A stretch of DNA of 64,000 nucleotides, taken from NCBI GenBank assembly GCA_047967505.1, contig CM106538.1; one strand, 5' to 3'. This DNA is from Dipteris shenzhenensis (taxonomy: Eukaryota). This document shows, piece by piece, positions 7,631 to 54,618 of this stretch (position 1 is its first letter; each line of letters starts with the position of its first letter). The position numbers were made by a program, and so were the translations under genes. The notes beneath the pieces are model-generated. The model saw nothing but the letters and a program-made list of their open reading frames with translations. It did no database searches and was not told the DNA's origin.

Positions 7631-8865
7631 GGTGCAAGAAATGTACTCAAAAGTGTCATGAAAATCTCTGTATGAATCAACAGCAAATACACTGACTGTG
7701 CCAAGTAAAATCTTTGAACCGTCGGTGAAGATAGAACTACAATATATAAAATCTGATCTGTATTACAAGGCTTGTGGCAATGATGCTGGGAATAGCCAAG
7801 AGGCTTTACAAGGCTGAAATGATGTGCACAATGCCGTGAGATAGCCAAATAGGCTCTACAATGGTGGCATGTGTGTGTGAAATTAAGTGCTATCTACCCA
7901 CTGAAACAATCTGCAATGTCTCTGTACTCTCTGAAGTTTGCTCACTGAACGATGAATGTAAGGTTTCAGGTAATGTAATGATGTGAAACCGTATGTGAGC
8001 ATATGGACTGACTCCGAGTAGGTACTAGTCAAAGAATTTTGGGCATGGCTTAGATTGGCAACTTGGGGAAATTCAAAGCATCCCCTTTATGGCGATCTAG
8101 TCTACTCTGATCTAGATCTATATCAATCTTCGATCGATGAAAGAACATCAAATAATTCCTTTCTTTTGTTCTTTTTAAGTGCTGGGTCAAATGCGTCAAT
8201 GTAGAGGCAAATGTGCGTGAAGGAAGTGGTTTTGTGTGGCAAGGCTCAAATGTGAGTGTAACTTGCACCGAAATGTACACATGATGTGACAAGCACGTAG
8301 AGCACAAAAAATCAAGTGACTTTCCTTTTTGGAGCGCCCTCAAATTCTTCCTGGATCAAGAGATACGACTTGATCTAGGTGGAGGGGCAAAAGGAGTGCA
8401 ATGGTGCTCAATGATGATGTGTCACTATGGGTCACATGCAATGATGACGTGGCATTGTGCCTAGCAAGAGGTGTGCCAGTGGAGCCCTATGCTGAGGTAG
8501 TAGGAGTGGTCACATATAGTGACTGTGGAGCACTATGTGTGCCTGCAGAGGTCCAGTGTGCCACGTCGCACAAATGGTGTGGTAGATGATGATGTCAGTA
8601 AAGGTGATGTGGCACTAGTGATGTGGCTATGTTGATGTGGCAATTAACATGGCAATGTTGACATGGCAGTTGTGACATGGCAGTGATGTTGATGTGGTAG
8701 ATAGAGTGCCACATGGTTGGTCACAAGCACACACACATATTTAAATATGCCTTTTACCTTGGTCAAATTTATCCATAACAGTTCCCCCCCCAGGCAAGGA
8801 ATGCACAGCATGTCCATGCCTGGGACCATCACGCACAAAGAAGGGCTTGAGATAATGCTTGTTGA

Positions 8866-11800
8866 TCACCTTCTTGCCATATGGCTCATGTAGACTTGTA
8901 TGGACCCATTGCTATGTTCCTTGATGACTTTGTATGGACGGGTCCACAATGGAAGGAACTTTTTATACATTTGGTGGTCCAATCTGTTATCAAAGCATAG
9001 CACAACATCCCCCTCAGCAAAGTGTCTTTCCCATCTCTTGCGAATCTTAGCATCCAAGTGGGCCTTTTGTTGGTTCTTTTGGATCTCTGTTTGATGTAGT
9101 GCAAGGTGTCGGGTTTCATCTAACTTCTCAAGTTGTACCAACCTGGCCTCTACATGTTCATCTTCTGTCATCCTCTATTCTCGTGCCAACAATCTCAAGG
9201 CCGGAATCTCTATCTCTAGTGGTAAAACTACCTCAGTACCGTACACCAACTCAAAAGGAGTGTGGCATGTAAACATTTTATGGGTGATGTTGTAAGCCCA
9301 CACGGCTTCAGTGACCTTTTGATCCCACTGGCTCCTATTCCTTGTGGCCATTTTCCCATGGATTTACAAAGGAGGCCGTTGGTCCGCTCCGTTTGTCCCA
9401 TGGATGCTGGATAATAGATGCTAGAAGTGCGATGATCAATACCCATGCAATCCATGAGCAACTCCACTGCTTCATTTAAGAATGGACTCCCATGGTCAGA
9501 TACTATTTCCATGGGTGTCCCAAACCTTGTGCAGATACGTTCAAATATGAAATTTGAAACTGCCTTACCATTTGCAGTGGGGAGGGCAATAGCTTCAGCC
9601 CACTTAGTGACATACTGAGTGGCTACCAAAAGATGCTTCTTTTTGCGGGTAGTCATGGGCAGGGGCCCAACAAAATCTATTCCCCACTTCTGAAATGGAT
9701 GGATGGACATCACTGGATGATTTTGCCCAGGACACAAATCCTTCCTACCAAAGAATTGACATGATTCATAAGTTTTGCAATACATAGTGACATCCTTGAA
9801 CAAGGTCGGCCAATAGTACCTAGCTGTATAGTCACTGGCATAATGGCCTCCACAAAATCCATCATGATAACGCTTCAATACCTTAGGTACTTCATCTGCA
9901 TCAATGGCCCATCTTAGTACCTCATCCATGCCTTGACAGTACAACACCCCATCAAAGAGAGTGTAGCACCTACTATCTCTACGGATCCTCTTTCTCTCAT
10001 AGCTAGTACTTTCTAGAGGAAAGGAGAAAGCGGTTAGAAATCTGTAGATACCACCATACCATGATCCCCAACTTCTATGGCTACTACAAGGGTTACATCG
10101 AGGCACTCCTCTAAATTCTTCTTAGCTGTATAGTCACTGGCATAATGTCCTCCACAAAATCCATCATGATAAAATTTCAATACCTTAGGTAATTCATCTG
10201 CATCAATGGCCCATCTTAGTACCTCATCCATGCCTTGACAGTACAACACCCCATCAAAGAGAGTGTAGTGCCTACTATCTCTACGGATCCTCTTTCTCTC
10301 ATAGCTAGTACTTTCTAGAGGAAAGGAGAAAGCGGTTAGAAATCTGTAGATACCACCATACCAGGATCCCCAACTTCTATGGCTACTACAAGGGTTACAT
10401 TGAGGCACTCCTCTAAATCAATCAAAGCATTCTTCAAGTTGGAACAACCCCCTTTTACAATTTTGAAAGAAAAATCATATTTTTATAAAACTGCCAATCG
10501 TTTGGCCAACCGGCCCATGGGATTTGGTGATTGAAGAACCTGTTTTGCAAGACCATTGCTAGAGATTATAATGAAGGACTTTCCAGCCACATAATGCTTA
10601 AATTTCTCAATGCAGAACACCAAAGACAAGGCATGCTTGTTAACCTCAGAGTAGCGTCATTCAGTTTCAAGCAATTGTCGAGAAGCAAATCGGACGGGAT
10701 ACATGAACTGATCCTCCCCTTGCTGGAGAAGAATACCCACCAAAGTGTGCTCACCAAACCCAGGATTAATATAGAAAGTCTTTGACCAATCAGGATTGCA
10801 TGGAATGGGTTCTGAAGCTAGAGCACTCTTGATTTGTACAAACCCATGATCACAATCCTCATCCCAAGAGAAATCAACCCCATCTTTTAATAACGTAGTC
10901 ATGGGTCACGTCAAAGTAGCATATTGATCAATGAAGCGGCGATAGTATCCTGCTAGATTGACAAAGGAGCATACCTGACGTTTCATTGTTGGTGGGGAGA
11001 GCTTGAGGATAGCTTCTACCTTCTTGGGGTCAGGCTTGACGCCCTTGAATGAGACAATATGTCCCAGTAACCTCCCTTGAGTGGTTTCAATGGTGCATTT
11101 TTCAGGGTTGAGGCTACCATTTGCATCATTGACCCTTTGGAAGGCCAACCTAACCTTCATGACGTGCTCCTTCCATGCTGAGAATATATAGAAATCATCT
11201 AAAAACACGTCCAAGAAAACCCCCAAATAAGGAGCAAACACCATCTGCATAAATCTTTGAAAGGTAGCATGAACATTGGTGAGGCCAAATGGCATTACTT
11301 TGAATGCAAACATCCCCCAGGCTGTGGCAAATGTGGTTTTAAGCACATCCTCCTCGGCAATTCTAATTTGATAAAACTTGAAGTTACCATCACAGAAAGT
11401 ATACATCTCATGACCACTTATCTTCTCAAGAATGAGGTCTTGAAAGGGTAGAGGATGATGGTTCCTCTTGGTGGCCGCATTGAGTTTCTTATAATTGATG
11501 CAGACTCGCCACTTGTTGTTTTTCTTTGGGGTGACTACCACTGGTGAAACCCATTCAGTATTGTGAACTGGGATAATAAACCCAACTTCTACAAGCTTCC
11601 GTAACTCTGAGTGCAAAGCGTCACTCTGTAGGGTCCCTAACCTCCGATATTTTGGAGCCACTAGCTTAGCATCAAGCTTCAGCTCTATCTTGTGTTTTAT
11701 GGCAGTCACATGGCGAAGGTGGTGGTAGCTAGTTGCGAAGAGGTTAGGGAAAACTTTGAACATTTCTAGGAACTCGTCTTCCTTGCTTGGAGTGAGGTTT

Positions 11801-12500
11801 GGGGAGAGCATAGATTCAAGCTGTTGAGGACTATCTGTTACCTTTTTCACAGGTGGTGGGGTTGGAGACACCCCCATCATGTAAACTTCTTCCTCCGAGA
11901 ACTCCTCCCCCCCATCCGAATCTTCCATTGATTCAGACACCGAGGATGAGAGAGTATCACTATCCTGCTCCTCTTCTTCTTTTGGTTCAGTGGCACCTCG
12001 TTGCATTGGGATCTTCTCCTTTGAAGCACCAAAAGACATGTGTCCTATCTTCCAATAGCTGACTGCATCACTCTTTCTCAACCACGGTCTCCTGAGTATG
12101 GCTGGGTAACTCTTGCTTGTATCTTCAATGTCCACTACATAGAAATTGATGGTGGTGGTCAACCCATTGACAGTGATGGGTAAATCCTCAATGACTCCTA
12201 GGGTGGCGAGTCGTCAATCATCTGCTACCTTGATTCAAGTGGAGGAGCGCCTTGTGCATTTCAAATTCAACTTCTTCATGATACAAGGCACCATGATATT
12301 ACATGCAACTCCCCCATCAACACACACACTTCTGACACAGCAATTATCTATGATGACGTCTACTATATGCGGGTGCCGATTTACTTCTTCAGAGATAGAA
12401 GAAATCTCTCATACCTTTCCCTTTTTCTTGTTCCTTTTTGTTGAGAGCCCTTGCTGCAGCTCACGTCTCACCTTAGGGCTTAATGCTATTAGTTGAGGAA
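8866..12500 (-). pseudogene. Element C pol (PR-RT-RH-INT, no aRH), fragmented
   Basis: 10906-12162 RT (WVSPVVVTPKK, MPFGLTN, FLDDF), 10657-10902 RH (FYINPG..VGILLQ), 9228-10106 INT (WGIDFVGPLP, SDHG), 8866-9171 INT C-terminus. Confidence 0.92.
9821..10419. repeat. 302-bp tandem duplication in the integrase N-terminal region of C
   Basis: ORFs 9228-10106 and 10034-10408 begin with near-identical ~95-aa sequences offset by 302 nt. Confidence 0.93.
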
Positions 12501-12531
12501 GCGTGATGCTCAAAGACCAATGAGCAAGGTC

Positions 12532-13712
12532 CTAAATGACCGAATAGTCTTCTTGCCCTAAGTTGATAGGAAAATCTAAAGGCGACCACTTACTCCTACG
12601 AGATCTTTTAGTCTTCTCTCTTGGTGGGCCTGCCATCTTAGCATTTGAGGGCTCTAAGGACACCTTCTTCCTAGGGTAGTGGCGGTCCTGGAGAGGGGTC
12701 CGAGGTGGCACGACTTCTCTTCCCGAGGTCAAGGACCTCTACGTTAGAATTCTCGGTGCCTGATCCACCTAGAAGATTCACCTTTGGAATATTGGGACAT
12801 TCGGTGTGATAATGACCCTTCTGGTGGCACTCATAGCACACGACATTGGCACGTTCTCTTTGAGGGCAATTGGCTTGATTTTTGATGCCTACCACCTCAA
12901 GCCAAATATCATTTAGGACCTTGGCTAGGTCATTGACTCTGAGTTCTTTAGCAAGAGGGGCCAAGGGAGTAGGAAGGAGGAGGGCTTGTCGGCGAGGCTG
13001 GGGAAATCTTCCAGGTGGAGGGTGAGGATATACACCTTGTTGAGGGTAAGCATCTAAGGGAGGACCATACATTTCAAGTGGAGGCAGTGGGTACATCCCT
13101 GATGGGGGGTACGGGTATGCCCCTAAGTTGGACTCCCCAAGTTGTTGTTGCAAAAAATTGAGGGGGTTGCGAAGGGACAACCGTCTTCTTTGAAGCGGGG
13201 TCAGACTGAACTTTATGAAACTTTTGAGCAATCTCATGTGCTAGCGCCATGGTTTCTGGATTTTCCCATTTAAGCTTGAGGCAGAATTTGTCACTTGCTC
13301 CTACTACAAGGAATCCCAGCACATGCTAAGTCATTCTAGCTCAAAATCCAGTGTTGTCCTCCTGCATGGTAATTAAATGGTCCAGGAGCGCGGCCGCTCG
13401 ATCCACATATCAATGTGCCATCTCACCTTCTGACTACTTCAAGTTTGCCACCTGCAGGTACACATTCTCCGGCTCCTCTTCTTTGCTAAAATACTCGATC
13501 ATAGCTGCTATCAACCTCGGCCAACTTTGGCAAACATCTTCGGCCTGCTTCTCATACCACACTTGAGCCATACCCTCTAGAAATGTGGGAAGAACCAACA
13601 ACCATCTATCTTCAGTAAGAAAGTTGAGAGAAACACAACAGCGCTTGAAGGCCACAAGATACTCACTTGGATTTTCTTCAATCCGACCACAGAACATTGG
13701 AATGTCAGCCAT
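12532..13712 (-). pseudogene. Element C gag (retrotransposon gag plus CCHC knuckle)
   Basis: MADIPMFCG..LPTFLEGMAQVWYE..W..LIAAM; knuckle CYECHQKGHYHTEC; homologous to element E gag. Confidence 0.88.
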
Positions 13713-13953
13713 GCTTGAAAAATGGAAAAGAGAGAGGTGAAATGAGGCTTATCTATTGGCAAACAATGGAAAGAGGTAGCTTGAACTAAAAATCTGGTGA
13801 AGATACATCCACAAAGCACACATAGGTAGGGTAGGGTGTGACTAGTGTGTATTGTGAAACACTATACGGTAAGAATCTTCAGCATAGAATAGCTCATAGA
13901 CAATCTTAAAAGGACCAACCCTTATTGGTTGAGACATGATATTGCATCCATCT

Positions 13954-14118
13954 TTACAGGCGAGGGTTAGAAACACGGCATTGCATGAGGTTGTTCATCA
14001 AGGCAAACAAGAATGCCATGACAAATGTCAACAGTTGGAGAGCTTGCACATCACCTTCAACTTCTTCCCGTTCTTGTGGTCGCCATACTATTTCTTCAAG
14101 GGGTGTGCGATTTGGCAT
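13954..14118 (-). CDS. Accessory ORF-B of element C (54 aa, unknown function, hydrophobic C-terminal half)
   Basis: Hand-translated MPNRTPLEEIVWRPQEREEVEGDVQALQLLTFVMAFLFALMNNLMQCRVSNPRL*; aligns without gaps to 23459-23599. Confidence 0.75.
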   Translation of the reverse strand: MPNRTPLEEIVWRPQEREEVEGDVQALQLLTFVMAFLFALMNNLMQCRVSNPRL

Positions 14119-14251
14119 CCTTCTTTTGAGTAATGTCCTTAAGGACCTTTTTGATGTTGTTCCAAAGTTGGTAAACTCGTATCAAAGATGCACAACACTG
14201 AGTTTCATGATGACCACAACCTTTGCATTCTTTACAAATGATCACCCTCAT
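14096..14251 (-). CDS. Small CCHC zinc-knuckle ORF in the leader of C (51 aa)
   Basis: MRVIICKECKGCGHHETQC.. has C-x2-C-x4-H-x4-C spacing and overlaps the flanking ORFs. Confidence 0.45.
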   Translation of the reverse strand: MRVIICKECKGCGHHETQCCASLIRVYQLWNNIKKVLKDITQKKDAKSHTP

Positions 14252-14696
14252 TCGTGGCTTGCGGCTTTGTTGGGAAAGTTCTTCCACTCATTTTATGCGT
14301 GATTGAAGTACAAGCTTCATGTGCCAAGAAATAAGCAACTAAATTTTGAGCTTGAGGTATATGCTAAATTTTTACCTCTTCAAATTGTTTGCAAAGTTCC
14401 AATGCTTGTTGATGTTGTGGAACCAAGCCTTCGCTCTGCACCTTCCACCTTCTGCTAACTTGTTCACACACGAGTTGATAATATCCTTGCATCTCAAGTT
14501 TCTTGATGTGATGTTCTTGCACCTTTTGTAGCCTAAAAATGAGTGTCGAGTACTCAGCTTGGTCACAAGTACTTGCAGGTGCAGACTTGCTATAACAATA
14601 CACCTCACCCCCCAGTGAAGTGAGCTTCACACCTACACTAGCAGCCTTAGTCGAAGGTTTGTATGCTCCATCAAATTGAAGGATCCAAGATGTCAT
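14232..14696 (-). pseudogene. Free-standing archaeal-type RNase H (aRH) ORF upstream of gag, with a premature TAG at 14364-14366
   Basis: WILQFDGA..AEYSTLI..LEMQG.YQLVCEQV..WKV..L..F..V.I*HIPQAQN.VA.FLAHEA; aligns with the aRH in element E pol. Confidence 0.88.
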
Positions 14697-14920
14697 TACA
14701 CCAAGACTAAAATCCGGGCATCCCAGGTTTCTCAGTAGTCCAAGATAGGTAGAAGGAGGGGGTGGGGAGAATTCAATACTTGAGCAAGATGTTCCATGCC
14801 AAATAAACTTACAATCCTTTGTTGATAGTTTATCTTTCGACCAAAAAGAATTACAACTTGAAGCTCAAAATGTGGCACAAAGGGTTGATTAGGTACAAAG
14901 GGACTCCTTGGTCGAAACAT
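14696..14920 (-). pseudogene. Accessory ORF-A of element C (74 codons, one internal TGA)
   Basis: MFRPRSPFVPNQPF..VILFGRKINYQQRIVSLFG..PLLLPILDY*ETWDARILVLV*; homologous to 30758-30982. Confidence 0.8.
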
Positions 14921-15360
14921 TACCAACCATAGCCAAGCCCTAGAAACTGTTGTAGTCAGGTCGAGAAGAAATTGTTTAAGATGAGCTTATCCACAGGAAT
15001 TAATAAGCAGATGCACCAAATCTCCCCCCAAGCTTGTGGATCATCCCACCCTTGGAAGAATGTCACCCTTTTAATGACCTCTGATGCAGCAAGTAGCTCG
15101 ATCACCGCACAATGAGTAGAACTAGAATCAAAGCCCTCTGAGTGTATCAATAGGTCTTCACCTTGAATTATCCATGGTGTATCATCCCACCCGTCGTCTC
15201 CTCAAGCAATGCATTGTACAATTAGTTGTTGAAGATCAACATGAAGATGAAGGAAGAGATCTCGCCAATTGGTAGTTGTAATGAGCAGAGGACCAAGCGC
15301 CAAATCCTTGAACCTGTCGAGAAGTGACATAAATATCCACCCTCCTTGTGTGGCGTGCAT
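14920..15360 (-). pseudogene. Accessory ORF-0 of element C (~146 codons, two internal TGA)
   Basis: In-frame extension of ORF 14956-15150 from ATG 15360 to TAA 14922-14920, which overlaps the ORF-A ATG. Confidence 0.5.
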
Positions 15361-15659
15361 ACTTAAAAAAATTTCAAAATCTACAATCTAGTACGAGATA
15401 TGGATGGAGCACATGAAGTGTACTTTTTCTTTTTATAGCAAGATGAAACTCCCTACGGTTAGAGAGTTACAGTTCATGAGATTTCAAGATATAAGCAATA
15501 TCATTACACTTTAATCACTTCCTATTTGCTGGCCCATTGGTAAGTCTTCCTTTTGTGAATGGGGAGATCTTGGCTTCAATTCCCACTCCTTAATAAAAAG
15601 GAGAGGAGAGGAGAAGAGAAAGAGAAGAAGAAGAGGATAGAGGGGCGTGAGGTCTATTG

Positions 15660-15960
15660 CAGATGCACAGGAACAGTTTTGTAAACTCACAGGTTGGATG
15701 CGCAAGGACAGTTTTGACGCGCGGACGACCAGAAGACGTGATGCACAAGAACAGTTTTGCAAACGCATAGATTGGATGCGCAAGAACAGTTTTAATGCGT
15801 GGATGACCAAAAGATGCACAGTGCGCACGTAAGACAATGGGGATACACGTGTGACCAGTAGACGTGCAAATGCATGCACAGGAACCTAGAAGATGAGCAG
15901 GAACCGTGAGCAAAAGGCATGCAGGTTGGAGACGCAAAAATAGAGAAGTTTTGCAACCGC
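15660..15960. repeat. Degenerate tandem repeats (GATGC(A/G)CA..AACAGTTTT units) in the 5' LTR/leader of C
   Basis: Recurring gatgcacaggaacagtttt / gatgcgcaagaacagtttt with ~35-40 bp subunits and a ~77-bp period. Confidence 0.7.
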
Positions 15961-17109
15961 AGAGATGGAGAACCGCAAGCAGAAGACACGTAGATTAGAG
16001 GCACAGAATTAGAGAACCAAACACAAAAGATGCCGCAGAATCGCACATAGTCGTAGGAGTAACAGATGTCAACGGACGGATTGTATGCCACTAGTCATGG
16101 AGACTTCGTATCCCAGCAGCCACACCAATTCTATTAACTAGAAAAATAAATCAAGGCATGAGGCTTGACGCTAGGCATGGCGACGCCCGAGAGCCATAGA
16201 AGAAAAGGAAACGTGAGGGGAGAAGCATTAACATGGGTGGGGAAAAGGGATTAAGAGGGGTGGAAATGAAGAGGAGGACTATGGCACAAGGGGGAAAGGA
16301 GAGGGGGAAGAGAAGCATGTACATGATGGGAGGTGGAATGTAGAGATGGAGACATCAAGGAAAGAGAGTCATGCTTTATTTGAAAGGAAGGATGGGGAAA
16401 TCAAAGTACTAAATAGCTAGGTGGCTTTACAAGAATGAGCGTGTCCCATCAAGGAATAGCCCCCTCCTTTTATAGCCAAAAGAGGGGGTCTCTCCCAATA
16501 AATGCATCCTTCCACATGCATGGTGTGTGTGGAGGAATCTCGCATGTGGGCTAGGTGGATACGCACCCTCAATTGTATGCGACAACCCTTTGCCTCATTT
16601 TCCCACATAAATCAAACCCCATATCCCAAGTCTAAGATACTCCCTTGGTCTCTCCCCAATTTTATAATACGTTCAAACATCTAGGAGGACAAGTGGAGGA
16701 CTATCCTACTTTCCCCATTATTTAACTTGCACTCTTGGACTATCGACACCCCCCCCACATGGGCCTATCCTACATGGAGGGAATAATCCAATATAATATC
16801 CATCTCCAGCTATTTTATATTACTTCTCCCATGGTCCTTGGGCCATGTCTCACTAAATGCAGGCATGGGACCGCCTAGGTGGAGGGGTGGCACATGGAGG
16901 AACCATGCCACCTTAACATTTTATAATACTACTACCATGGATTATGTACAACACCTCTTATGGGTCCTCTTACGTGGAAGGGTGGTACATGGTCATGCCC
17001 TACCACCTCAACCCTAGGCCCTATGTACACCATATTGTATTATACTATTGCCACACATACAAGCACACACACATATTTATGCCTTTTACCTTGGTCAAAT
17101 TTATCCATA

Positions 17110-17113
<4 letters not shown>

Positions 17114-17163
<50 letters not shown>
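17114..17163. repeat. (TG)n microsatellite
   Basis: About 25 TG units adjacent to the 5' end of element C. Confidence 0.97.
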
Positions 17164-17167
<4 letters not shown>

Positions 17168-18162
17168 ACTAATATATCCAATATGCATCAGAATTTCCAA
17201 TGGTCATTTGTTCTTTTGGTATGTTGCTCCATATGGTCTAGCTGGCTACCATACATTATTGTTGGTAATGTAAATTTTATAGTAGTTAAAACTTTACATT
17301 GTGTTTTGAAGCATCTTTTAATTTGTCATGTTTTTAGACATGTCAATGTTGTAATTACCAATTACTATTTTATATACGTTCTTATTTGTAATTTGTAGAT
17401 TATATTGCCATAAGAATGTAATAAACATTTTGATCTAAAATGTTTGGGGTATTATCCGCTCTCAGTGTACCAAGTCTTTGGGCTTGGAGTTTATCTCCAA
17501 GGGCGTAACTATCTTTGGAGCTGACCTGGGTCCTGATAAAGCTACTCTTTGGGATGTGATCAGATATGCCACTCTCCATAGAATCTAGTCAGCCCGGTAT
17601 GATGCATCGGTTAATGGTGCTATTGTGTTTTCTATGTTGTGTAAGCATGCAGTTATAGATATAGGTGTCCATGTCTGGCTAGTTAGCCAGAGGTAGATGT
17701 TAGAGTTCATCTCTAGAACTTGTTGTATGAGATGGATTTTGGTTTTCACTGAGTAATAAAAGAGCAAACCGCTTTCAATAAAATTTTTTTAAAAAAAGTT
17801 TATTTGTGGTGAAACACCCCAAGCAGAGCCACAATAGCTCAGACAGTCTACTAGGGAAAGCGAACCTCCAGCCTGTTGGGATATCTCAAGGTGTATGCCT
17901 CAGGCACACCTTATGTTTCTATGTGTGAGTGCTAGAGGCACAGTTAGGTGCCCACAAGCACAGTTAGGTGGTGGAAAAGCCACATAGGATGATTGAGTGA
18001 ATCTAGGAGCAGATTGAGGAGATGATTGTGGAGCTTTGAGGTCATCAGTGATGTCAGTGACCTTGTATGAGGTGCCTACTTAAGGACCTCTTTCTTCTTC
18101 ATTCTATATGCAAGTATTCTGATTTTGTGTCAACTCTACTCTTTCCTTTCAGTATTCCAACA

Positions 18163-20970: not shown

Positions 20971-22383
20971 ACTTATAGTATCAATCCATATTAGACTAAA
21001 CTAGATCTACATTGGTCAAACAAAGGTCTAAGACAATCGCCCAATAGTGAATCAGTAGGAAGGGACTCACCTGATACCATAAAAGGGATCCCATTTCCCT
21101 CATTGCAATGTTAGCATATAGTAGGTCTTTTAGCCAACATCAGATTGCAAGACTCCCCATAGCCCAAGGAGCACTTATTAGCCTTTAATAATGATAGGAG
21201 TGGGAGAAAAGGAGCAAAATACCTCTCTCCACCTTACCTTCCCACCTCACCATCATAGGAAGGGATAGTGTGATGCCAAAAATTGATATTTTTAATTTGG
21301 CATTGGTATTGTTTTTCTCTATGTTTGATAAGAGTTTGAGTATCAAGTGATAGCCTAGCGGCTCTCACTTATTTCTATTTTCTATGATATTGTATGGGAT
21401 GGAGAGGATGAGTGGAATGGCTCATTGTAAATACCATAGGTATGAATTATAAATACCTTGGTATGGGGTGAGAGTTATTTGTGTATGGGATTTTATGGAG
21501 TTTTTTAGAAAATAGGAAGAGTGAGTCATATAAAGAGGTGGGCTCATGTCCATGTGTTCCAATAATATAAGAGAGGCCACATGCCAAGCGTGTGGAAGGC
21601 ATGTGGAGGAGTGTGAAGTCAAGAGGAATCCTTCTAGAACTCCTATGTGGAATAAGGAGGATGTGGACATGTGGAAAAGAGAGGGTCCCTATGGACTCCA
21701 TGTGAGGAGACTCTTGACTTTCTCAATATTTTAGGAGTCTTGAGCATCTTGTGATGGGACACATGGCAAGAGTAGCCAAAAAGGACATGGATGGTGACAT
21801 ACGTGCTTATGTGATTGATGGGGAAAGGAATCTACAGGTAGCAATTGTAAATGGGTGAAGGAGGGTAACAAAATCTCTATAAAAGGAACCCTCCTCTCCC
21901 TTGTTCATCAATCTCTTCCACCATTAGGCCTTATGTTGCTATAGCTCTAGTCTCCCCAAGCCTCTTCCATGAGCCTTCTCTCCCTCTTGTAGATATTCTC
22001 TTATGTAGACTCTTGAGTCCATCTCTCTCTAGTTTATTCTCTCTCTATGAGTAGTCTTGGAGCTTCCGCTCCCTCTTGTATGTATGAAACCTCTTCTTCT
22101 CCCTTGTGTTTGTAATGTTGGAGTGGATTCTCACTCTATTTGTAATGAAGGTCACTTCAGGTTCTCTCTCTCTTGAGTGTCTCTTCCCTTTTCTTTCTTT
22201 CAAAGCCTTAAAAGTTCTTTCTATTCGGCTGCTCACTGTGCACACATGGTCCATCTATTTCCTGAGCCACCATGCAAACTTCTTCCCCTCATCTAGGCGA
22301 AATCAATGAGGGGTGGATCGTTGATGAAGGTGGAGTCTTGAGGGAGCATCCTGCTCAGGCGAAATTAGCATGGATGGAGGGCA

Positions 22384-22920
22384 ATTTTCATGACAGTTTG
22401 ACCCCCTGTTAGTATTTTGCTCATAACTTTCTGCCGGTAGTCCGATTGTAATGAAATTTATATCAGCGCGAAGCTCTCTTTAAGGGCATGTTTGTATGTG
22501 GTCAGATCTTGAATCAAATACTGCTGCAATAAGTTATGATTCTCTGTGTGTGACAGTCTGTTTTTATGACAGTTTTTTCCCCCGTCTAGTAAACTGTCCA
22601 TAACTTTTTGGCCGCTTCTCTGTTTCTTACGAAACATATATCAGCACGAAGCTCTCTTTAAGGCGCATGTCTCTAATGCTTATATCTTGAATCAGATACT
22701 ACTGCAAAATGTTATGAGTCTCTGTGTCTGACAGTCTGTTTTCATGATAGTTTTTACCCCCTTTGAGTAAACTATCCATATCTCTTCAACCGTCTGTCTG
22801 TTTTCAATGAAACTTATATCAGCGCGAAGCCCATCTCAAGGCGCATCTCTTTGTTGATTGAATCTTTGATATCATGTCTCTACTGAAAGTTATAGGTCTT
22901 TGTGTCTAATGACAGTTTGT
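22384..22920. repeat. Three ~178-bp tandem repeats inside the LTR of E (also ~30175-30710)
   Basis: TATCAGC anchor at 22461, 22639 and 22817. Confidence 0.85.
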
Positions 22921-22965
22921 AGAGTGTTTTGAGCTAAGTATAAAGGTGTCTATGAAGGAGGTGCA

Positions 22966-23190
22966 ATATTTCCTCGGAATCTACCCATCCGACCCAATCA
23001 GCCCCTTCAAACTCCTAGATATATATCAATTCATGTCATGTTGAGCTGCAAGATCTTCTTTCAACAACGTATCGCTCTTCTCTTTGGCGCAGACCAGCTC
23101 GTTGAGATTATGGCCTCTGCTGATCCTTTCCTTCTCCCTATGCTTGATTACAACATCACTTGGGATGTTACCATCTTCATTCTCATCTGA
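22966..23190 (+). pseudogene. ORF-A copy in the 5' LTR of E (start codon ATA, otherwise open)
   Basis: IFPRNLPIRPNQP..QQRIALLFG..PFLLPMLDYNITWDVTIFILI*. Confidence 0.7.
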
Positions 23191-23340
23191 GGGAGGAAAG
23201 TATGGTATGGTATCTTGGCATAAAAGCTTCTTTCTAATGTCCCATTCTCAATGATAAATATCTTTGGCAGTCAATTTGAAAGCAGTAGGAAGTGAAGAGG
23301 TGCGTGAAGTTTATTACCCCCAACTTCATGTCACATCTTT

Positions 23341-23357
23341 TGGTGGAGACGCCGGGT
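23341..23357 (+). promoter_or_regulatory. PBS of E, probably tRNA-Ala
   Basis: TGGTGGAGACGCCGGGT, 5 nt after the LTR, is complementary to a ..TCTCCACCA 3' end typical of eukaryotic tRNA-Ala. Confidence 0.7.
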
Positions 23358-23458
23358 ACGTTTGGTATTGGATTCATCCCACCTTACTAAATAGTCTCGG
23401 GTGTGCTTGATTGCATGTTATGCCTAGAAGAGGCATGTGTTTTGATGAGGTAAAGAAG

Positions 23459-23599
23459 ATGCTTGGAAGAACTCCGTTAGAAGAGATTGCAACCCGTTTA
23501 AGAGAACTTGAAGATTGTGAAGGTGATGCTCAAGCTATTCGCACAGTCACCATGATCATATCCTTTATGTTTGCACTGTTGAATATGTTGGTGAATTGA
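23459..23599 (+). CDS. Accessory ORF-B of element E (46 aa)
   Basis: MLGRTPLEEIATRLRELEDCEGDAQAIRTVTMIISFMFALLNMLVN*; homolog at 13954-14118 (-). Confidence 0.75.
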   Translation: MLGRTPLEEIATRLRELEDCEGDAQAIRTVTMIISFMFALLNMLVN

Positions 23600-23943
23600 C
23601 AACACCGGCAGCAGGCACAATGATAGATTGGGGATTGTTCCATGCACTGGTAGCTTGGTGTGAAGAAGAGTTGAGTCTTTGGGTAGTTTTCGACTATAAT
23701 AGTGGAGTGGTGATTCTTAATGCTTTCAACTTCTTTTGCTATGCAAATGATGAAGAGTACAATATCTTGAAGCTTTTATGTGTACTTCCTATTGTGAGAA
23801 GGGTGATTCTAGAATGCATGTATACACAATGTTTTCATGGTGCTGGTTGGTGGTCACTTACTTTTGAAGATTTTGTTGAGGATCACATTGTGGAGGGTTT
23901 TCAACAAGTGGTTATGCATAATAAGTTGGTCTTGGTATACTAA
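23596..23943 (+). CDS. Accessory ORF-C of element E (107-115 aa, unknown function)
   Basis: Open frame between ORF-B and gag (first ATG at 23620), protein-like composition, weak similarity to ORF-0 of C. Confidence 0.55.
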   Translation: MTTPAAGTMIDWGLFHALVAWCEEELSLWVVFDYNSGVVILNAFNFFCYANDEEYNILKLLCVLPIVRRVILECMYTQCFHGAGWWSLTFEDFVEDHIVEGFQQVVMHNKLVLVY

Positions 23944-24017
23944 GGCTCTATGGGATCTTGTTCAAATCTTGTTTGGGATATTATTTGGATCTTGGTGTTT
24001 CCTTTTTGTGTTTCATC

Positions 24018-25454
24018 ATGGTGAAGATTCCAGTGTTTCGAGGGACCCAAGGGGAAGACCCGGAGTCTTATCTTCAGGATTTTGTTCGAGGATGCCGGCT
24101 TTCTGGATGGTCCATGAAGGATCGGGCAGAGATTTTGCCTGATTTTCTTGAAGGTGTAGCCTTGAGTTGGCATGAGACCTTGCCGGACTCTACCAAGGAG
24201 GACTGGAACCAAGTGGTGGCAGCAATGAAGCAGAGATTTGGGGCAGTGGAGTCGCCAAATGCTTTGATGTTGCAGTTGGACCGGTTCTATCAAGGAGAGG
24301 GTGAGTTGGTCTCTGCGTTGGCAATCCGATATGAAACTTTTTGGACAAAGTATGAAAGGGCAGCTTTGCGAGCTGTGGCATCTACATCATCGGCCCCTCA
24401 AAGTCTCTCAGGGATGCAGCACTTAAAGATGAGCAAATTTGTTATGGCTTTGGAGCCTCGTCTTCGCTCAAAAGTAATGAGTAAAGATCCAACAACATAC
24501 GTGGAGGCACTTCGCATTGCGACCAAGAAAGAAGCTTCTCTAAAGATCGAATCCTCTTTTGTGTCTTCAACAGCTTCAAATTCTAAGGTGGAGGTAATGG
24601 GCACTCCTCAAGTACCAAAGTCCTCTGAGTTAGATCATAATATCTCCCAATTGATGGCAGAGTTTGCTGATTTGAAATTGCATTTGGTTAATGCACGACA
24701 ACCTAGAGCACCAAAGAGTGAAGATAGGCCTCGAGATAGGAGTGGGGTCACTTGCTATGAATGTAATGAAAAAGATCACTATCACCCCGAGTGTCCTAAA
24801 TTGAGAAAGAAAGAAGAAAAACAAGTATCCTTGTTAGAAGCTTCTTCAGGGGATGAGGAAAGAGAGGTAATGATGGCTAAACGGGGGCGTGGTAAAGCAA
24901 AAGAAGAAGAAGAAAGCAAGGAAGAAGTAGATGAGGAACATCAAGAAGAGGAACACCATAGTAAGAAAAAGAAGGCATCTAGAAGGAGAATTAGCCAGTC
25001 AGACTTTCCTTTAGGACAAGGAATTGGAAGCTATGACTTGTTGTCCGACCTTAAAGAAAAGGAAGCTCATATCACCTTTGGTCAATTACTTGCTTTGTCT
25101 CCAAAACTACGGAAGGAATGGGGAAAACTAGCAAGCACAAGAGTGTCAAAGAAGAAAAAGAAGAAAAGTGCCATTCCTATTGTTCAAAAGGTAGATATAG
25201 ATGTTGGTGATGATGTACCTGTGGTTGATGTGATCATTGATGGTCAAGTGATTTCTAATGTGTACATTGATGGAGGTGCATTGATTAATGTCATGAGTGA
25301 GAAGACCATGATAGATACTGATTTAAAATACTCTAGTACTACCTCTCCTTATCACATCAAATTGGCTAACAACACTAGGGTTAAGACCTTGGGAGTTGTG
25401 AAGAATCTAGAAGTGGATGTATGTGGAATTTCTATGCCGACTACTTTTCAGTGA
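24018..25454 (+). CDS. Element E gag-protease
   Basis: MVKIPVFRG..LPDFLEGVALSWHE; knuckle CYECNEKDHYHPEC; protease VYIDGGALINVM; frameshift near 25440. Confidence 0.92.
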   Translation: MVKIPVFRGTQGEDPESYLQDFVRGCRLSGWSMKDRAEILPDFLEGVALSWHETLPDSTKEDWNQVVAAMKQRFGAVESPNALMLQLDRFYQGEGELVSALAIRYETFWTKYERAALRAVASTSSAPQSLSGMQHLKMSKFVMALEPRLRSKVMSKDPTTYVEALRIATKKEASLKIESSFVSSTASNSKVEVMGTPQVPKSSELDHNISQLMAEFADLKLHLVNARQPRAPKSEDRPRDRSGVTCYECNEKDHYHPECPKLRKKEEKQVSLLEASSGDEEREVMMAKRGRGKAKEEEESKEEVDEEHQEEEHHSKKKKASRRRISQSDFPLGQGIGSYDLLSDLKEKEAHITFGQLLALSPKLRKEWGKLASTRVSKKKKKKSAIPIVQKVDIDVGDDVPVVDVIIDGQVISNVYIDGGALINVMSEKTMIDTDLKYSSTTSPYHIKLANNTRVKTLGVVKNLEVDVCGISMPTTFQ

Positions 25455-25899
25455 TCCCTACCAAGCCAGATGCACGTGCCTATCCATTGATTTTGGGAAG
25501 GCCTTGGCTACGCAAGGTGAAGGCTGTTCAAAAGTGGGATACTGGAGAATTGATTTGCAAGGAAATGATAAGAAGGTGCGCTACAACATCAGAAGCCGCA
25601 AAAAGGAAGTTGTCAAGGAGGAGTCTTCAACATCAAAGAGTTCAAGCTCTGACTTAACCAATGAAGAAGAAGAGACAGGGTGTAGCTTCGAGGAGTCCAA
25701 CTCAGAGGGTGAGGTGGAAGGAGTGGCCTTTGGTCTTTGTCTTGGTGCTGATCGGGATGAGTCAGGAAGGAACAAGGTGGTGGTGCAAGAAGATCCTATA
25801 GAGACACTTCATGTGGAGGATGTGGAGCACACTAAATGACGCCAATGCAATGAAGAGCTTCTTGGTGATTCTCTATCAGGTAGTGAGAAGCTCCAGTAC

Positions 25900-28800
25900 T
25901 TGGATATGCTAGATGATTTTCCATGTTTGTTTGCAACAAGCTATTCACAGGTTCGACCAGTCTCTCTTGTGGAGCACAAGATTGAGTTGAAGCCAGAAAG
26001 CAAGCCAGTTGTGCAACGCTTAAGGCGATTGGGGGTGATCCAAGCTGAGGCACTAAAGAAAGAGGTAACACAACCAGTTGAGGCGGGATTCATCTTTCCT
26101 GTTGATGATTCAGAATGGATATCTCCTGTAGTTGTCACACCAAAGAAAGGAAATAAGTGGCGAGTTTGTGTGGACTTTCGTCCTTTGAATGCATGCACTA
26201 AGAGGGATCATTTTCCTTTGCCATTCCAAGATGAAATACTAGACCAAGTAGTAGGGCATGAGATGTATTTTGTATGTGATGGGTATTCTGGGTACTTTCA
26301 AATTTGTATTCGGGAGGAAGATCAAAAGAAAACATCATTTGTCACACCTTGGGGAGTTTTTGCTTACAGAGTGATGCCTTTTGGGTTGACGAATGCACCA
26401 GCTACATTTCAAAGGTTCATGAGTCAAGTCCTGGAGCCTTACTTGGGAAAGTTCATAAGGGTGTTTTTGGATGATTTTTGCATTTATTCTCAGCACATAG
26501 ATCACATGGAGAAGTTAAAGATGGCCTTAGCTAGGATTGATGAAGCAAAAGGGTGTCTAAATCCTAGCAAGTGTCATTTGGCTCAAACAAAAGTAGTCTT
26601 GTTGGGGCATATTGTGTGTGAAGAAGGCCTGCAAATGGATCCTGACAAGGTTCAAGCAATCATGACATTGCCAAGTCCTGAGAGTGTCACTGGTGTTCGC
26701 AGAATTCTAGGAAAGAGCAAGTATTATCAACACTTTTGTGATGATTTCACAGAGATAGTGCATCCCATGAACTTGTTGACAAGAAAAGGAGTTTCTTTCC
26801 AATGGGGTGTGGAGCAACAAGAATCTTTCCAGCAACTTAAGGAGGCCATGAGTAAGGGCCCAATATTGAAGCCCCCTAATTGGTCTCAAGATTTTTATGT
26901 AAATCCAAGTGTATCTTTGCATTCAGTTGGTGCTGTATTGCTACAAAAAGGAGAGGTAGGTAGAATGCAACCCATCTATTATGCCAGCCAACAGCTTACA
27001 AATGTGGAAACAAGGTATGAAGAAATGGAGCAGCAAACTCTCTCTTTGGTGTTTTCCATCAGAAACTTTCGCTCCTATTTATTACCTCGACCATTTTTCT
27101 TCCTTACCTCTCAGTTTGTATTAGCATATCTAGTTCGCAAGCCTAATCCTGGGGGGAGATTTGCAAAATGGTTGTCAGAGCTTCAAGAGTTCTCTTTCTC
27201 TTTTGTCACGAAAAATACCACTAGGTCCACTATGGCAGATTTGTTCACAGGACGGGAGGATCTAGGAGAAGAAAAGAAATGTAAGGAGAACATTAAAGAT
27301 GAAAGGGATACACCACCAACAACTTTTGTTTTGTATTTTGATGGGGCTTTTAGTCCTTCATGCCAACAAGGAGCCGGGGGGATAGTCTTGATGAATCCTG
27401 AAGGTCAAGAGGTATGGGCAAGAGGACAAGAGCTTCCAGGTATCACTACTAACAATGCAGCTGAGTATAATGCTTTGATTCTTGGTTTGGAGGGTTGTGT
27501 TCAAAGTCAAGTTAAAGAATTGGAAGTAAGAGGAGATTCTCAGCTTATTATAAAGCAAATGCAAGGGCATTACAAGACAAGAAGTCCTCATTTGAAGGAG
27601 CTTAATCAAAAGGCTATGGCACTATGTAGTCAGTTTGATTTTTGCAAGTTTGTTCATATAAACAGAAAAGAAAATCAAAGGGCAGATGAGTTAGCTACTC
27701 AAGCCATTGTAGTACAAGACCGGGGGGTGGTTTCTTTGGTAGACACTGGATGGCCAGAACTACAAGATGTTCAGCAATATGTGGAAGAAGGCATGTTTCC
27801 TCGAGGGTTAACTCCACAACAGAAGCAGAGATTGGTAAGGAAGGCTTGTCCCTATACTATTATTGATGACATTCTTTATAAATTGGGAAAAGATAAGGTG
27901 CTCTGTCGAGTGGTCCATCCCATGGAGACTAGGAGAATCCTAGAAATGTGTCATGAATGCTCTGGTCATTTTACTTCAGCAAGCACAGCTATGAGAATTC
28001 TTAATGCAGGCTACTTTTGGCCACACCTCCATAAGGATGTATATGAATGGTGTCGAAGTTGTAAAGTATGCCAAAAGTTTGGAAGGCGACATTTGATTCC
28101 TGGGCCCTTGAAGCCTATTCTAGCATATGGACCATTTGAGAGGTGGGGGTTGGACTTTGTGGGACCACTCCCTCGCTCATCTCAAGGCAAGCATTATTTA
28201 TTGGTGGCCACAGATTATGCGACTCGATGGGCAGAGGCCAAGGCCACAGTCAATAGCAAGGCAAGCACAGTTGCAAAATTTCTCTTTGATCAAATTTATT
28301 CACGCTTTGGTTGTCCTTTGGAAATTCTCACTGATGGAGGAACCTCTTTTAGAAATGAACTAATTGAACATGTGGTGCATAAGCTAAAGATAAATCATAG
28401 CATGTCCATGCCATACTATCCCCAATGTAATGGCTTGGTTGAGAAAACAAATGGATTGTTGTGCAATTCAATGGGAAAGCTTGTTGACACTAAGAAAAGG
28501 CATTGGGATAGGCACTTGGCAGAAGTTTTATGGGCTTACAGAACCACACACAAGCTAGCTATTGGGTTTACAGCATTCCAACTAGTGTATGGAATAGAAG
28601 CCATTTTACCCATTGAATTGGAGATACATAGTCTTCGCACAGCTGTTGCAAGAATAAAAGGGCAAGAGGATGCCTATGCTCAACACTTGGTACAGCTAGA
28701 AGCCTTGGATGAATGCAGATTACAGGCCTTACAAAACTTGAAATCTTCTCAAAAAAGGCGCAAGGCCCATTTTGACACCAAATTATGCAAGAAGAAAGAT

Positions 28801-29007
28801 ATTGCAGAAGGAGATTTGGTAATGAGATTTGATAGCCGTCTGGACAAGCGGCTAGACAAAAAGTTTATCGGTCGATGGGAGGGACCATATCGAGTCAAAA
28901 AGAAGTTCACGAATGGAACCTATAAGCTTGAGGAGGTTGATGGCATGGTGATACCCGGACGCACCAATGAGTATCGCCTTAAATTCTTCTATGCTCGACT
29001 ACCTTGA
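25900..29007 (+). CDS. Element E pol: RT - degenerate RH - aRH - integrase
   Basis: RT (MPFGLTNAPATFQR, FLDDF), RH (FYVNPS..VGAVLLQ), aRH (LYFDGA..TNNAAEY..GDSQLIIKQ..HINRKENQRADELA), INT (WGLDFVGP, TDGG, NGLVEKTN). Confidence 0.95.
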   Translation: MDMLDDFPCLFATSYSQVRPVSLVEHKIELKPESKPVVQRLRRLGVIQAEALKKEVTQPVEAGFIFPVDDSEWISPVVVTPKKGNKWRVCVDFRPLNACTKRDHFPLPFQDEILDQVVGHEMYFVCDGYSGYFQICIREEDQKKTSFVTPWGVFAYRVMPFGLTNAPATFQRFMSQVLEPYLGKFIRVFLDDFCIYSQHIDHMEKLKMALARIDEAKGCLNPSKCHLAQTKVVLLGHIVCEEGLQMDPDKVQAIMTLPSPESVTGVRRILGKSKYYQHFCDDFTEIVHPMNLLTRKGVSFQWGVEQQESFQQLKEAMSKGPILKPPNWSQDFYVNPSVSLHSVGAVLLQKGEVGRMQPIYYASQQLTNVETRYEEMEQQTLSLVFSIRNFRSYLLPRPFFFLTSQFVLAYLVRKPNPGGRFAKWLSELQEFSFSFVTKNTTRSTMADLFTGREDLGEEKKCKENIKDERDTPPTTFVLYFDGAFSPSCQQGAGGIVLMNPEGQEVWARGQELPGITTNNAAEYNALILGLEGCVQSQVKELEVRGDSQLIIKQMQGHYKTRSPHLKELNQKAMALCSQFDFCKFVHINRKENQRADELATQAIVVQDRGVVSLVDTGWPELQDVQQYVEEGMFPRGLTPQQKQRLVRKACPYTIIDDILYKLGKDKVLCRVVHPMETRRILEMCHECSGHFTSASTAMRILNAGYFWPHLHKDVYEWCRSCKVCQKFGRRHLIPGPLKPILAYGPFERWGLDFVGPLPRSSQGKHYLLVATDYATRWAEAKATVNSKASTVAKFLFDQIYSRFGCPLEILTDGGTSFRNELIEHVVHKLKINHSMSMPYYPQCNGLVEKTNGLLCNSMGKLVDTKKRHWDRHLAEVLWAYRTTHKLAIGFTAFQLVYGIEAILPIELEIHSLRTAVARIKGQEDAYAQHLVQLEALDECRLQALQNLKSSQKRRKAHFDTKLCKKKDIAEGDLVMRFDSRLDKRLDKKFIGRWEGPYRVKKKFTNGTYKLEEVDGMVIPGRTNEYRLKFFYARLP

Positions 29008-29058
29008 CGGCCAACAGATCGGCTCTGTACTAGAGAGGATCTGCTGGGGGGGGAAAGA

Positions 29059-31127
29059 TGTGATGCCAAAAATTGATATTTTTAATTTGGCATTGGTATT
29101 GTTTTTCTCTATGTTTGATAAGAGTTTGAGTATCAAGTGATAGCCTAGCGGCTCTCACTTATTTCTATTTTCTATGATATTGTATGGGATGGAGAGGATG
29201 AGTGGAATGGCTCATTGTAAATACCATAGGTATGAATTATAAATACCTTGGTATGGGGTGAGAGTTATTTGTGTATGGGATTTTATGGAGTTTTTTAGAA
29301 AATAGGAAGAGTGAGTCATATAAAGAGGTGGGCTCATGTCCATGTGTTCCAATAATATAAGAGAGGCCACATGCCAAGCATGTGGAAGGCATGTGGAGGA
29401 GTGTGAAGTCAAGAGGAATCCTTCTAGAACTCCTATGTGGAATAAGGAGGATGTGGACATGTGGAAAAGAGAGGGTCCCTATGGGCTCCATGTGAGGAGA
29501 CTCTTGACTTTCTCAATATTTTAGGAGTCTTGAGCATCTTGTGATGGGACACATGGCAAGAGTAGCCAAAAAGGACATGGATGGTGACATACGTGCTTAT
29601 GTGATTGATGGGGAAAGGAATCTACAGGCAGCAATTGTAAATGGTAAAGGAGGGTGACAAAATCTCTATAAAAGGAGCCCTCCTCTCCCTTGTTCATCAA
29701 TCTCTTCCACCATTAGGCCTCATGTTGCTATAGCTCTAGTCTCCCCAAGCCTCTTCCATGAGCCTTCTCTCCCTCTTGTAGATATTCTCTTATGTAGACT
29801 CTTGAGTCCATCTCTCTCTAGTTTATTCTCTCTCTATGAGTAGTCTTGGGGCTTCTGCTCCCTCTTGTATGTATGAAACCTCTTCTTCTCCCTTGTGTTT
29901 GTAGTGTTGGAGTGGATTCTCACTCTATTTGTAATGAAGGTCACTTCAGGTTCTCTCTCTCTTGAGTGTCTCTTCCCTTTTCTTTCTTTCAAAGCCTTAA
30001 AAGTTCTTTCTATTCGGCTGCTCACTGTGCACACATGGTCCATCTATTTCCTGAGCCACCATGCAAACTTCTTTCCCTCTTCTAGGCGAAATCTATGAGG
30101 GGTGGATCGTTGATGAAGGTGGAGTCTTGAGGGAGCATCCTGCTCAGGCGAAATTAGAATGGGTGGAGGGCAGTTTTCATGACAGTTTGACCCCCTGTTA
30201 GTATTTTGCTCATAACTTTCTGCTCGGTAGTCCGATTGTAATGAAATTTATATCAGCTCAAAGCTCTCTTTAAGGGCATGTTTGTATGTGATCAGATCTT
30301 GAATCAAATACTGCTGCAAAAAGTTATGATTCTCTGTATTTGACAGTCTGTTTTCATGATAGTTTTTACCCCCGTCTAGTAAACTGTCCATAACTTTTTG
30401 GCCGCTTCTCTGTTTCTTACGAAAAATATATCAACACGAAGCTCTCTTTAAGGGGCATGTCTTTAGGTACTTATATCTTGAATCAGATACTGCTGCAAAA
30501 TGTTATGAGTCTCTGTGTCTGACAGTCTGTTTTCATGATAGTTTTTACCCCCTTCTAGTAAACTGTCCATATCTCTTCAACCGTTTGTCTGTTTTCAATG
30601 AAACCTATATCAGCGCGAAGCCCATCTCAAGGCGCATCTCTTTGTGTGATTGAATCTCTGATATCATGTCTCTACTGAAAGTTATAGTCCTCAGTGTCTA
30701 ATGATAGTTTGTAGAGTGTTTTGAGCTAAGTATAAAGGTGTCTATGAAGGAGGTGCAATGTTTCCTCGGAATCTACCCATCCGACCCAATCAGCCCCTTC
30801 AAACTCCTCGATATATATCAGTTCATGTCATTTTGAGCTGCAAGATCTTCTTTCAACAACGTATCACTCTTCTCTTTGGCACAGACCGGCTCATTGAGAT
30901 TATGGCCTCTGCTGATCCTTTCCTTCTCCCTATGCTTGATTACAACATCACTTGGGATGTTACCATCTTCATTCTCATCTAAGGGAGGAAAGTATGGTAT
31001 GGTATCTTGGCATAAAAGCTTCTTTCTAATGTCCCATTCTCAATGATAAATATCTTTGGCAGTCAGTTCGAAAGCACTAGGAAGTGAAGAGGTGCGTGAA
31101 GTTTATTACCCCCAACTTCATGTCACA
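29059..31127 (+). repeat. 3' LTR of E
   Basis: Follows the PPT GGGGGGGGAAAG; direct repeat of 21269-23335. Confidence 0.96.
30758..30982 (+). CDS. Intact accessory ORF-A (74 aa) in the 3' LTR of E
   Basis: MFPRNLPIRPNQP..VILSCKIFFQQRITLLFG..PFLLPMLDYNITWDVTIFILI*; homolog in C at 14696-14920. Confidence 0.75.
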   Translation: MFPRNLPIRPNQPLQTPRYISVHVILSCKIFFQQRITLLFGTDRLIEIMASADPFLLPMLDYNITWDVTIFILI

Positions 31128-42072: not shown

Positions 42073-42357
42073 CTCTCACAATCTGCTCGCAAACAGAAAC
42101 ACACTACCAAATCTTCTTGCTCTATAGAGTCCAGGCTCTGATACCATGTAAGAAAATAATACAACGTCTGTGCTCAACAGATAATAGGATCTCGTACACA
42201 AGAGAGAAAACAAGATAGTATGGAGAATCCAAAATTTGATTACTGTAGAACTGATACAATAGAAGGCGCTGCCTCCCAGCCGCGCGCTCCTGTGAAAGAA
42301 GCTTCGATGGCATGCTGGAAACAGTAGAAGACGGAGGCTGAATGCTAAGGAATCAGG

Positions 42358-54515: not shown

Positions 54516-54618
54516 CCATTTCCTCATCCACATCCAGGCTCCATCCCTCGTCTAGCTCCTCTCCCTTTTTGGTGGCAGCCTCTTCCTCATCGGAGTTCTC
54601 GCAGTCTGTCTTGGCGGT

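Follow-up and report, generated by a model that had tools for sequence, protein, structure and literature searches.

A stand-alone archaeal-type RNase H ORF upstream of gag in a dead retrotransposon copy, and the small ORF whose stop codon it overlaps

How an RNase H gene comes to stand on its own in front of gag, in an element whose pol carries another RNase H, and what such a gene could contribute to reverse transcription, are the questions raised by a retrotransposon that we call element C. It lies in a window of 64,000 nucleotides, the whole stretch of Dipteris shenzhenensis DNA that was analysed (contig CM106538.1). The window is plant-like, with nested transposable elements throughout; its other ORFs are pieces of Copia and gypsy gag and pol genes, and no host gene was seen in it. 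Among its contents are a Copia element on the plus strand (42357-47945) with 99%-identical LTRs (42357-42711 and 47591-47945), a repeat pair of 92% identity around that element (39000-39524 and 47944-48469), a further gypsy-like RT region (58457-60079, within 54000-61700, plus strand), and a second element, E, to which C is compared throughout.

Anatomy of element C and the damage to its RNase H ORF

Element C lies on the minus strand. Read from its 5' end, it is made up as follows:

14697 to 17113, minus strand: 5' LTR region, with the start at about 17113 supported
14696 to 14950, minus strand: ORF A, whose TAA (14698-14696) shares a base with the ATG of the next ORF, and which contains a TGA at 14734-14732
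14232 to 14696, minus strand: stand-alone archaeal-type RNase H (aRH) ORF, 154 codons, ATG to TAA
13954 to 14118, minus strand: ORF B, 54 codons, between the aRH and gag, with a counterpart at 23420-23599 in element E
12142 to 13712, minus strand: gag and protease region, ATG at 13712, split over frames (tblastn with E gag, and ORF list)
10420 to 12213, minus strand: PR, RT and native RNase H (RH), with three in-frame stops (Pfam RVT_1 and RT_RNaseH_2)
8893 to 10413, minus strand: integrase (INT), directly after RH with no aRH between them (Pfam rve and Integrase_H2C2; tblastn)
8723 to 8795, minus strand: polypurine tract (at about 8790) and the first 57 bp of the 3' LTR, the remainder of which is missing or replaced

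The start of the LTR is given by a 93% match of 8723-8779 to 17059-17111, and no LTR pair was found for C beyond this 57-bp stub. A long (TG/CA)n microsatellite adjoins the outer end of the 5' LTR (17114-17170). The integrase region contains a tandem duplication of 302 bp (9812-10413), the copies of which are 96-97% identical.

The 154-codon ORF matches the Pfam model RVT_3 from end to end (positions 2-123 of 123, E 3.9e-19, 69 bits against a cut-off of 21.6 bits, the ORF being queried with X at an in-frame TAG); RVT_3 represents the archaeal-type RNase H found in plant retroelements. The in-frame TAG, at 14366-14364, stands where 14 of 14 intact relatives of 154 aa (described below) have Gln, and two catalytic Asp codons have become Tyr codons, at 14483-14481, where GDS reads GYY, and at 14333-14331, where ADF reads AYF. 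The DEDD tetrad of the window copy is thus broken by Tyr at two of its four positions, in addition to the stop. In every aligned contig of other family copies, taken from four runs of public data, differences at 14483 and 14479 turn the GYY of the window back into GDS and so restore the Asp-Ser. At 76-77% identity to two intact proteins of 154 aa, P0001 and P0002, the window copy is an old member with private mutations, and an active enzyme is impossible from it. The TAG, the two Asp-to-Tyr changes, the stops in pol and the truncated 3' LTR together make this a dead copy of C.

Element E lies on the opposite strand and serves for comparison; its parts, and a further trace of ORF A elsewhere in the window, are:

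21270 to 31127, plus strand: element E, with LTRs at 21270-23335 and 29060-31127 that are 97% identical
22966 to 23190 and 30758 to 30982, plus strand: ORF A copies of E, one inside each LTR
23341 to 23356, plus strand: PBS candidate of E, 5 nt past the LTR
23420 to 23599, plus strand: ORF B of E, 59 codons, between the PBS and gag
23925 to 25454, plus strand: gag of E
25840 to 29007, plus strand: pol of E, with an aRH at about 27337-27705
48887 to 48744, minus strand: ORF A relic

E is not fully intact despite the 97% identity of its LTRs, as its protease region is coded in three different frames and the RT ORF has an in-frame stop ahead of it (25385-25840). Each of its LTRs also holds about three tandem repeats of about 178 bp directly 5' of ORF A (22385-22920 and 30173-30643); in tblastn these repeats were unrelated to ORF A.

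The two pol genes differ precisely where an aRH could lie. The E protein carries RT_RNaseH at residues 349-451, RVT_3 at 500-622 and Integrase_H2C2 at 696-747. By tblastn, E pol residues 5-455 (RT-RH) map to 11817-10465 of C and residues 644-1030 (INT) map to 10351/10049-8893; RH and INT are therefore about 38 codons apart in C where E has 188 residues, which leaves no room for an aRH in C pol. Two contigs of other copies cross the same junction (10365-10648) and likewise have no aRH there (0 gaps in X4 record 25, 3 in X2 record 10). From these two contigs and the window copy, C-type pol would appear to lack an aRH family-wide. The first-pass annotation, made from the window alone, had read the two elements in this way: an aRH with its own ATG 5' of gag in C, a C pol that runs from RH straight into INT, an aRH inside pol between RH and INT in E, and a C copy probably killed by a premature TAG and two Asp-to-Tyr changes. 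The RVT_3 match and the gag ATG at 13712, the spacing and the two junction contigs, the order of the E domains and the comparison with the 14 intact relatives uphold this description on each count.

A family with a separate RNase H gene

An ORF of this kind could be an unrelated fragment confined to the window copy, such as the 3' terminus of a plant L1 LINE or part of a gene for a host RNase H. The same Pfam domain does occur in L1 elements of plants and in host genes, cellular SAP-RNase H proteins are among the longer matches to P0001, and C is otherwise rearranged, with its tandem duplication and its truncated LTR. Several properties of the ORF argue against such an origin, however: it is a full ORF that has a start and a stop codon of its own; its ATG meets the conserved stop of ORF A with single-base precision; upstream of it there is no trace of a LINE RT or zinc finger; 14 intact relatives have the identical length; and other copies from four runs have the same flanks on both sides. 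We consider a stray fragment very improbable.

The relatives come from protein searches run with two length limits. Between 84 and 270 aa there were nine matches, all 67-80% identical to the C aRH, P0001 and P0002 among them being 154 aa long with 100% coverage. The 90% clusters of these two proteins have 25 and 8 members, and of the 23 cluster members listed, 14 have a length of exactly 154 aa, the contigs that encode them reaching 8.1 kb. These 14 intact proteins share the same Met start and the same end residue, are 89-99% identical to one another, and all keep D9, E48, D72 and D122. Over its full length, P0001 can be aligned to structures of archaeal-type RNase HI, and the catalytic motifs coincide (Halobacterium 4E19, E 2.8e-17; 3HST and 2EHG as well). 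Between 271 and 2000 aa, no close relative of P0001 was found fused into a polyprotein, the best identity being 44%; the matches in this range comprise aRH domains from the pol of angiosperm Tat elements, along with the cellular SAP-RNase H proteins. JGI metagenome contigs scanned with P0001 gave one locus, which at 33% identity is not a relative. One exception to the separate-ORF layout is the relative P0009, in which ORF A is fused in frame to the aRH; it looks like a copy with a short deletion that joined the two ORFs.

The surroundings of the gene in other copies were read from public-data contigs of four runs of one organism, aligned at 80% identity or more; six public DNA run sets were listed, with small shares (0.05-0.07), and no RNA set, which bears on expression in neither direction. 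The family contigs cover all 30 bins of C. They overlap along 14917-14083, across the ORF A/aRH junction and the aRH stop, and along 14055-13548, across the gag start; the adjacency of gag in other copies is read from short contigs of 80-95% identity, the listed pieces of which leave 14055-14083 uncovered. Transitions dominate the differences between the window and the family contigs over 8500-17300 (in run X1, 200 A>G, 196 G>A, 190 T>C and 180 C>T, against 21-43 of each transversion), as expected for old, methylated transposon copies.

Because 14 intact relatives have the same length and contigs from four runs have matching flanks, the aRH is, on this sequence evidence, a separate upstream ORF across the C family and not a private insert. 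The first-pass annotation had set as a check that intact relatives of C carry it as a separate upstream ORF with an intact D-E-D-D tetrad; the layout recurs in the 14 relatives and in the contigs of the four runs, and all four catalytic residues are kept in 14 of 14.

A gene shared by the family could still be carried without being used, C-type elements borrowing their RNase H from E-type elements. An E-type element with an intact in-pol aRH lies only 7 kb away, and Biryukov & Ustyantsev (2023, PMC10508981), in the accessible part of their paper, question how an aRH in a separate ORF could function. That all 14 full-length relatives, at 89-99% identity, keep the ORF open and the DEDD residues in place would nevertheless be unexpected for an unused stretch of 465 bp, with the reservation that young copies could look alike without selection. 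We regard borrowing as improbable, and the gene as more plausibly one that the family uses.

Decay of the native RNase H and the published Tat layouts

The native RH of both elements had been described in the first-pass annotation as lacking the first catalytic Asp, and alignment to the Ty3 RT/RNase H structure 4OL8 agrees: FYVNPS of E and FYINPG of C align at TTDAS, with no Asp in either. In the same alignment the third catalytic Asp position is occupied by another residue in both elements, and the Glu is also absent in C. The motif F[YF]VNPS is found in retrieved fern elements as well.

The phylogenies place C near such elements. The RT-RH tree, which has 24 rows, unites C and E in a single clade (SH-aLRT 99) with aRH-bearing elements of Adiantum nelumboides and ENA records; C branches first in this clade (95), and its long branch makes the precise placement uncertain. 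This clade joins the angiosperm Tat rows through a polytomy, in a tree whose rows do not include named reference Tat or Athila sequences. A protein search with C pol (328-1047 aa range) gave nothing above 55% identity, and its best named matches were to the fern Adiantum nelumboides. In an aRH tree of 20 rows and low resolution, the C-type and E-type aRHs pair (SH-aLRT 87, unstarred), apart from the in-pol aRHs of ferns and angiosperms; this is weak evidence for the pairing, and the literature cautions that aRH phylogenies have poor resolution.

Two features of C are those of Tat elements: an archaeal-type RNase H (RVT_3) is present besides the native RH (RT_RNaseH_2) in pol, and the catalytic core of the native RH is degraded. 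The accessible part of Biryukov & Ustyantsev (2023, PMC10508981) assigns all aRH-bearing LTR elements to Tat, distinguishes five Tat structures, of which structure #4 has the aRH upstream of gag, and reports that the native RH decays whatever the position of the aRH. Prokopeva et al. (2026, PMC13468544), as far as their text is accessible, name this layout 'pre-capsid' and credit it to the 2023 paper and to Wang et al. (2021); the hosts given for structure #4 in what is accessible of the two papers are four mosses and Selaginella tamariscina. The premise of the first-pass annotation that the known Tat aRH positions all lie within the polyprotein is contradicted by structure #4, and its proposal of a new aRH position does not survive, the layout being already in print. 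C, a dead copy, is most probably a member of this published layout.

Like structure #4, C is a Ty3/gypsy element, probably of the Tat lineage, with its aRH in an ORF of its own, unfused to gag or pol, located 5' of gag and with no aRH inside pol; where this ORF lies relative to the PBS and the LTR end has three candidate answers, discussed below. C differs in that (i), its RT-RH groups beside fern elements, whereas the published hosts are mosses and Selaginella tamariscina; and (ii), its aRH is preceded by a small ORF with a stop-start overlap, neither of which is mentioned in the accessible parts of the two papers (PMC10508981, PMC13468544). E corresponds to Tat structure #1 (retrovirus-like dual RH): it shares with C the degenerate native RH motif, ORF A, ORF B and the order gag-PR-RT-RH-INT, and differs in having its aRH in pol and in that 145 bp of LTR, and then the PBS, come after ORF A where C has its aRH.

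The explanation that we favour, and hold to be highly likely, is that C is a dead copy of a multi-copy Tat-lineage Ty3/gypsy family of structure #4 layout, in which a separate aRH gene replaces a decayed RH. On this model, the native RH in the pol of the C family has lost its catalytic residues, and the catalytic RNase H comes from the separate 154-codon aRH gene between the 5' LTR region and gag. The 5' region of the genomic RNA would be translated into a free aRH protein, which would supply in trans the cleavage of RNA/DNA hybrids for reverse transcription; the degenerate RH in pol would then serve as a connection or tether only.

ORF A, the UAAUG overlap and the end of the LTR

The stop of ORF A and the start of the aRH (ATG at 14696-14694) share a single base, in TAATG, the two ORFs having different reading frames. 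At this point four contigs of other copies (records 7, 16, 23 and 31) run through with 0 gaps, the 84-aa protein P0181 ends at the end of ORF A, and the 154-aa proteins start at the aRH ATG; the TAATG letters are presumably conserved in the relatives. P0181 aligns over its residues 2-84 to 14947-14699 at 76% identity (tblastn). A profile search of 1.84 billion representatives with ORF A gave 49 clusters at E<=1e-3, including 16 at <=1e-10; their proteins are mostly 63-118 aa long and the match reaches the protein C-terminus. In the alignment the start (often MNN), the core and the stop position are conserved, and the stop in C is at the conserved position.

In E, the same ORF resides in the LTR. 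The 250 bp 5' of the aRH ATG are the only upstream part of C that is similar to E (61% over 118 nt by blastn), and the similar region is inside the LTR of E. In translation, ORF A is 39% identical between C and E, comparable to the other proteins of the two elements; its start codon in E is ATG in the 3' LTR copy and ATA in the 5' copy. ORF A has no Pfam match and no usable match in the ESM Atlas. Its AlphaFold model, built with an alignment of 38 sequences, has a mean pLDDT of 82.9, exceeding 90 over residues 30-84, and a predicted beta-alpha-alpha-beta-beta arrangement for which no convincing fold relative was found (best E 0.51 with Foldseek against the PDB; best Z 3.3 with VIA-align against 48,161 chains). 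The second small ORF, ORF B, is similar between C and E over 134 nt (63% by blastn), with the same residue at 22 of 43 aligned codons and differences by codon position of 18/10/25, a pattern that leans towards coding; ORF B has no Pfam match.

Accessory ORFs of this general kind have precedents. Mouse mammary tumour virus encodes a superantigen, sag, in its LTR. Other Tat/Ogre elements have extra ORFs 5' of gag that encode PMD or transposase-28 domains, according to the accessible part of Ustyantsev et al. (2015, PMC4408406). All of these are accessory ORFs outside gag-pol, and sag is LTR-borne like ORF A of E, but none is an RNase H and none resembles ORF A.

That the aRH ATG overlaps the stop of a conserved ORF A suggests that the aRH may be translated as a second cistron by termination-reinitiation, which we advance as a tentative proposal. 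About 25 nt 5' of the overlap there is a UGGGA pentamer, of possible interest in view of the TURBS-like or rRNA-complementary elements that hold the 40S subunit in such systems. Against the proposal, the RNA around TAATG, in the mutated window copy, folds no better than shuffles (141 nt, z +1.28), and P0009 has the two ORFs fused. Termination-reinitiation at UAAUG is described for caliciviruses, influenza B segment 7, the hypovirus CHV1 and the non-LTR element SART1 in the accessible parts of two papers (PMC10275272, PMC2699510). The likeness to these systems is in the arrangement itself, the ORF A stop and the aRH AUG sharing one base and the ORFs being out of frame; the differences are that no structured upstream element was detected in C, that the upstream ORF has only about 75-85 codons, and that C is known from sequence. 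No LTR retrotransposon with the UAAUG mechanism came up in our literature search, nor did anything relevant on an LTR-borne ORF; ORF A and the TAATG detail are possibly new. The fuller form of the proposal, in which a previously undescribed ORF A of about 70-85 aa would open a bicistronic unit and the aRH would follow as its downstream cistron, expressed through UAAUG termination-reinitiation, is one that we consider possible and somewhat doubtful.

How the ORF A-aRH pair is placed in the element depends on where the C LTR ends, and there are three candidates for its 3' end: 15210, 14691 and about 14169. With the first, 15210, a terminal ...CA and a 4-nt spacer precede a 13/16 match to the E PBS (15205-15190), matches of this quality being expected 0.16 times in the whole window. 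This PBS-like sequence is about 240 bp 5' of ORF A and would put ORF A 3' of the PBS, unlike in E; 15190-15210 is either the real C PBS or a relic of rearrangement. The second candidate, 14691, at the aRH ATG, has the better terminal inverted repeat. The third, about 14169, comes after the aRH and would make the ORF A-aRH pair LTR-borne, as ORF A is in E. When the LTR tail and PBS of E were locally aligned to the three C regions, the observed scores were reached by 255, 77 and 61 of 300 shuffles. No aRH remnant was found in the LTR tail of E, and the window contains no tRNA gene for PBS comparison. The joints of the contigs cluster at 14956-15003, a hint that the window copy is rearranged just 5' of ORF A.

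With an LTR end at about 14169, ORF A and the aRH would be inside the C LTR and present twice per full copy, and the pre-capsid layout would be the same thing as the post-integrase one. This alternative draws on the position of ORF A inside both E LTRs, 145 bp from the end, combined with the start of the C aRH at the ORF A stop, and on one contig that joins gag at 12602 to 14956, as an internal deletion into the 3' LTR would. It would also speak to a discrepancy between the two papers, whose accessible texts differ on the moss layout, which is #4, 'upstream of gag', in 2023 (PMC10508981) and 'post-integrase' in 2026 (PMC13468544). Yet no significant LTR-end or PBS homology follows the aRH, the only PBS-like match (13 of 16 bases, 15205-15190) is upstream of ORF A, and the depth of the contigs has no clean two-fold step; the C 3' LTR moreover ends after 57 bp, which makes a direct comparison impossible in the window. 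An LTR-borne aRH is, in our view, unlikely, and we retain the reading of a pre-capsid aRH gene between the 5' LTR region and gag.

As first posed, the finding matters little because the layout and the decay of the native RH are in print and the copy is dead. What it adds is that the layout with an aRH before gag is independently confirmed in sequence data outside the published studies, and that many intact aRH genes of 154 codons exist in the C family, which has multiple copies. The published studies do not settle by what means an RNase H located outside pol is expressed, nor how it reaches the reverse-transcription complex. The base-exact overlap of ORF A and the aRH offers a concrete, testable mechanism of expression: if true, coupling at UAAUG would answer the published question by tying expression of a separate-ORF aRH to that of the element. 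Should the ORF A-aRH pair prove to be LTR-borne in C-type elements, 'pre-capsid' and 'post-integrase' could be one architecture. ORF A itself points to an unannotated family of accessory proteins in the fern- and lycophyte-type Tat elements.
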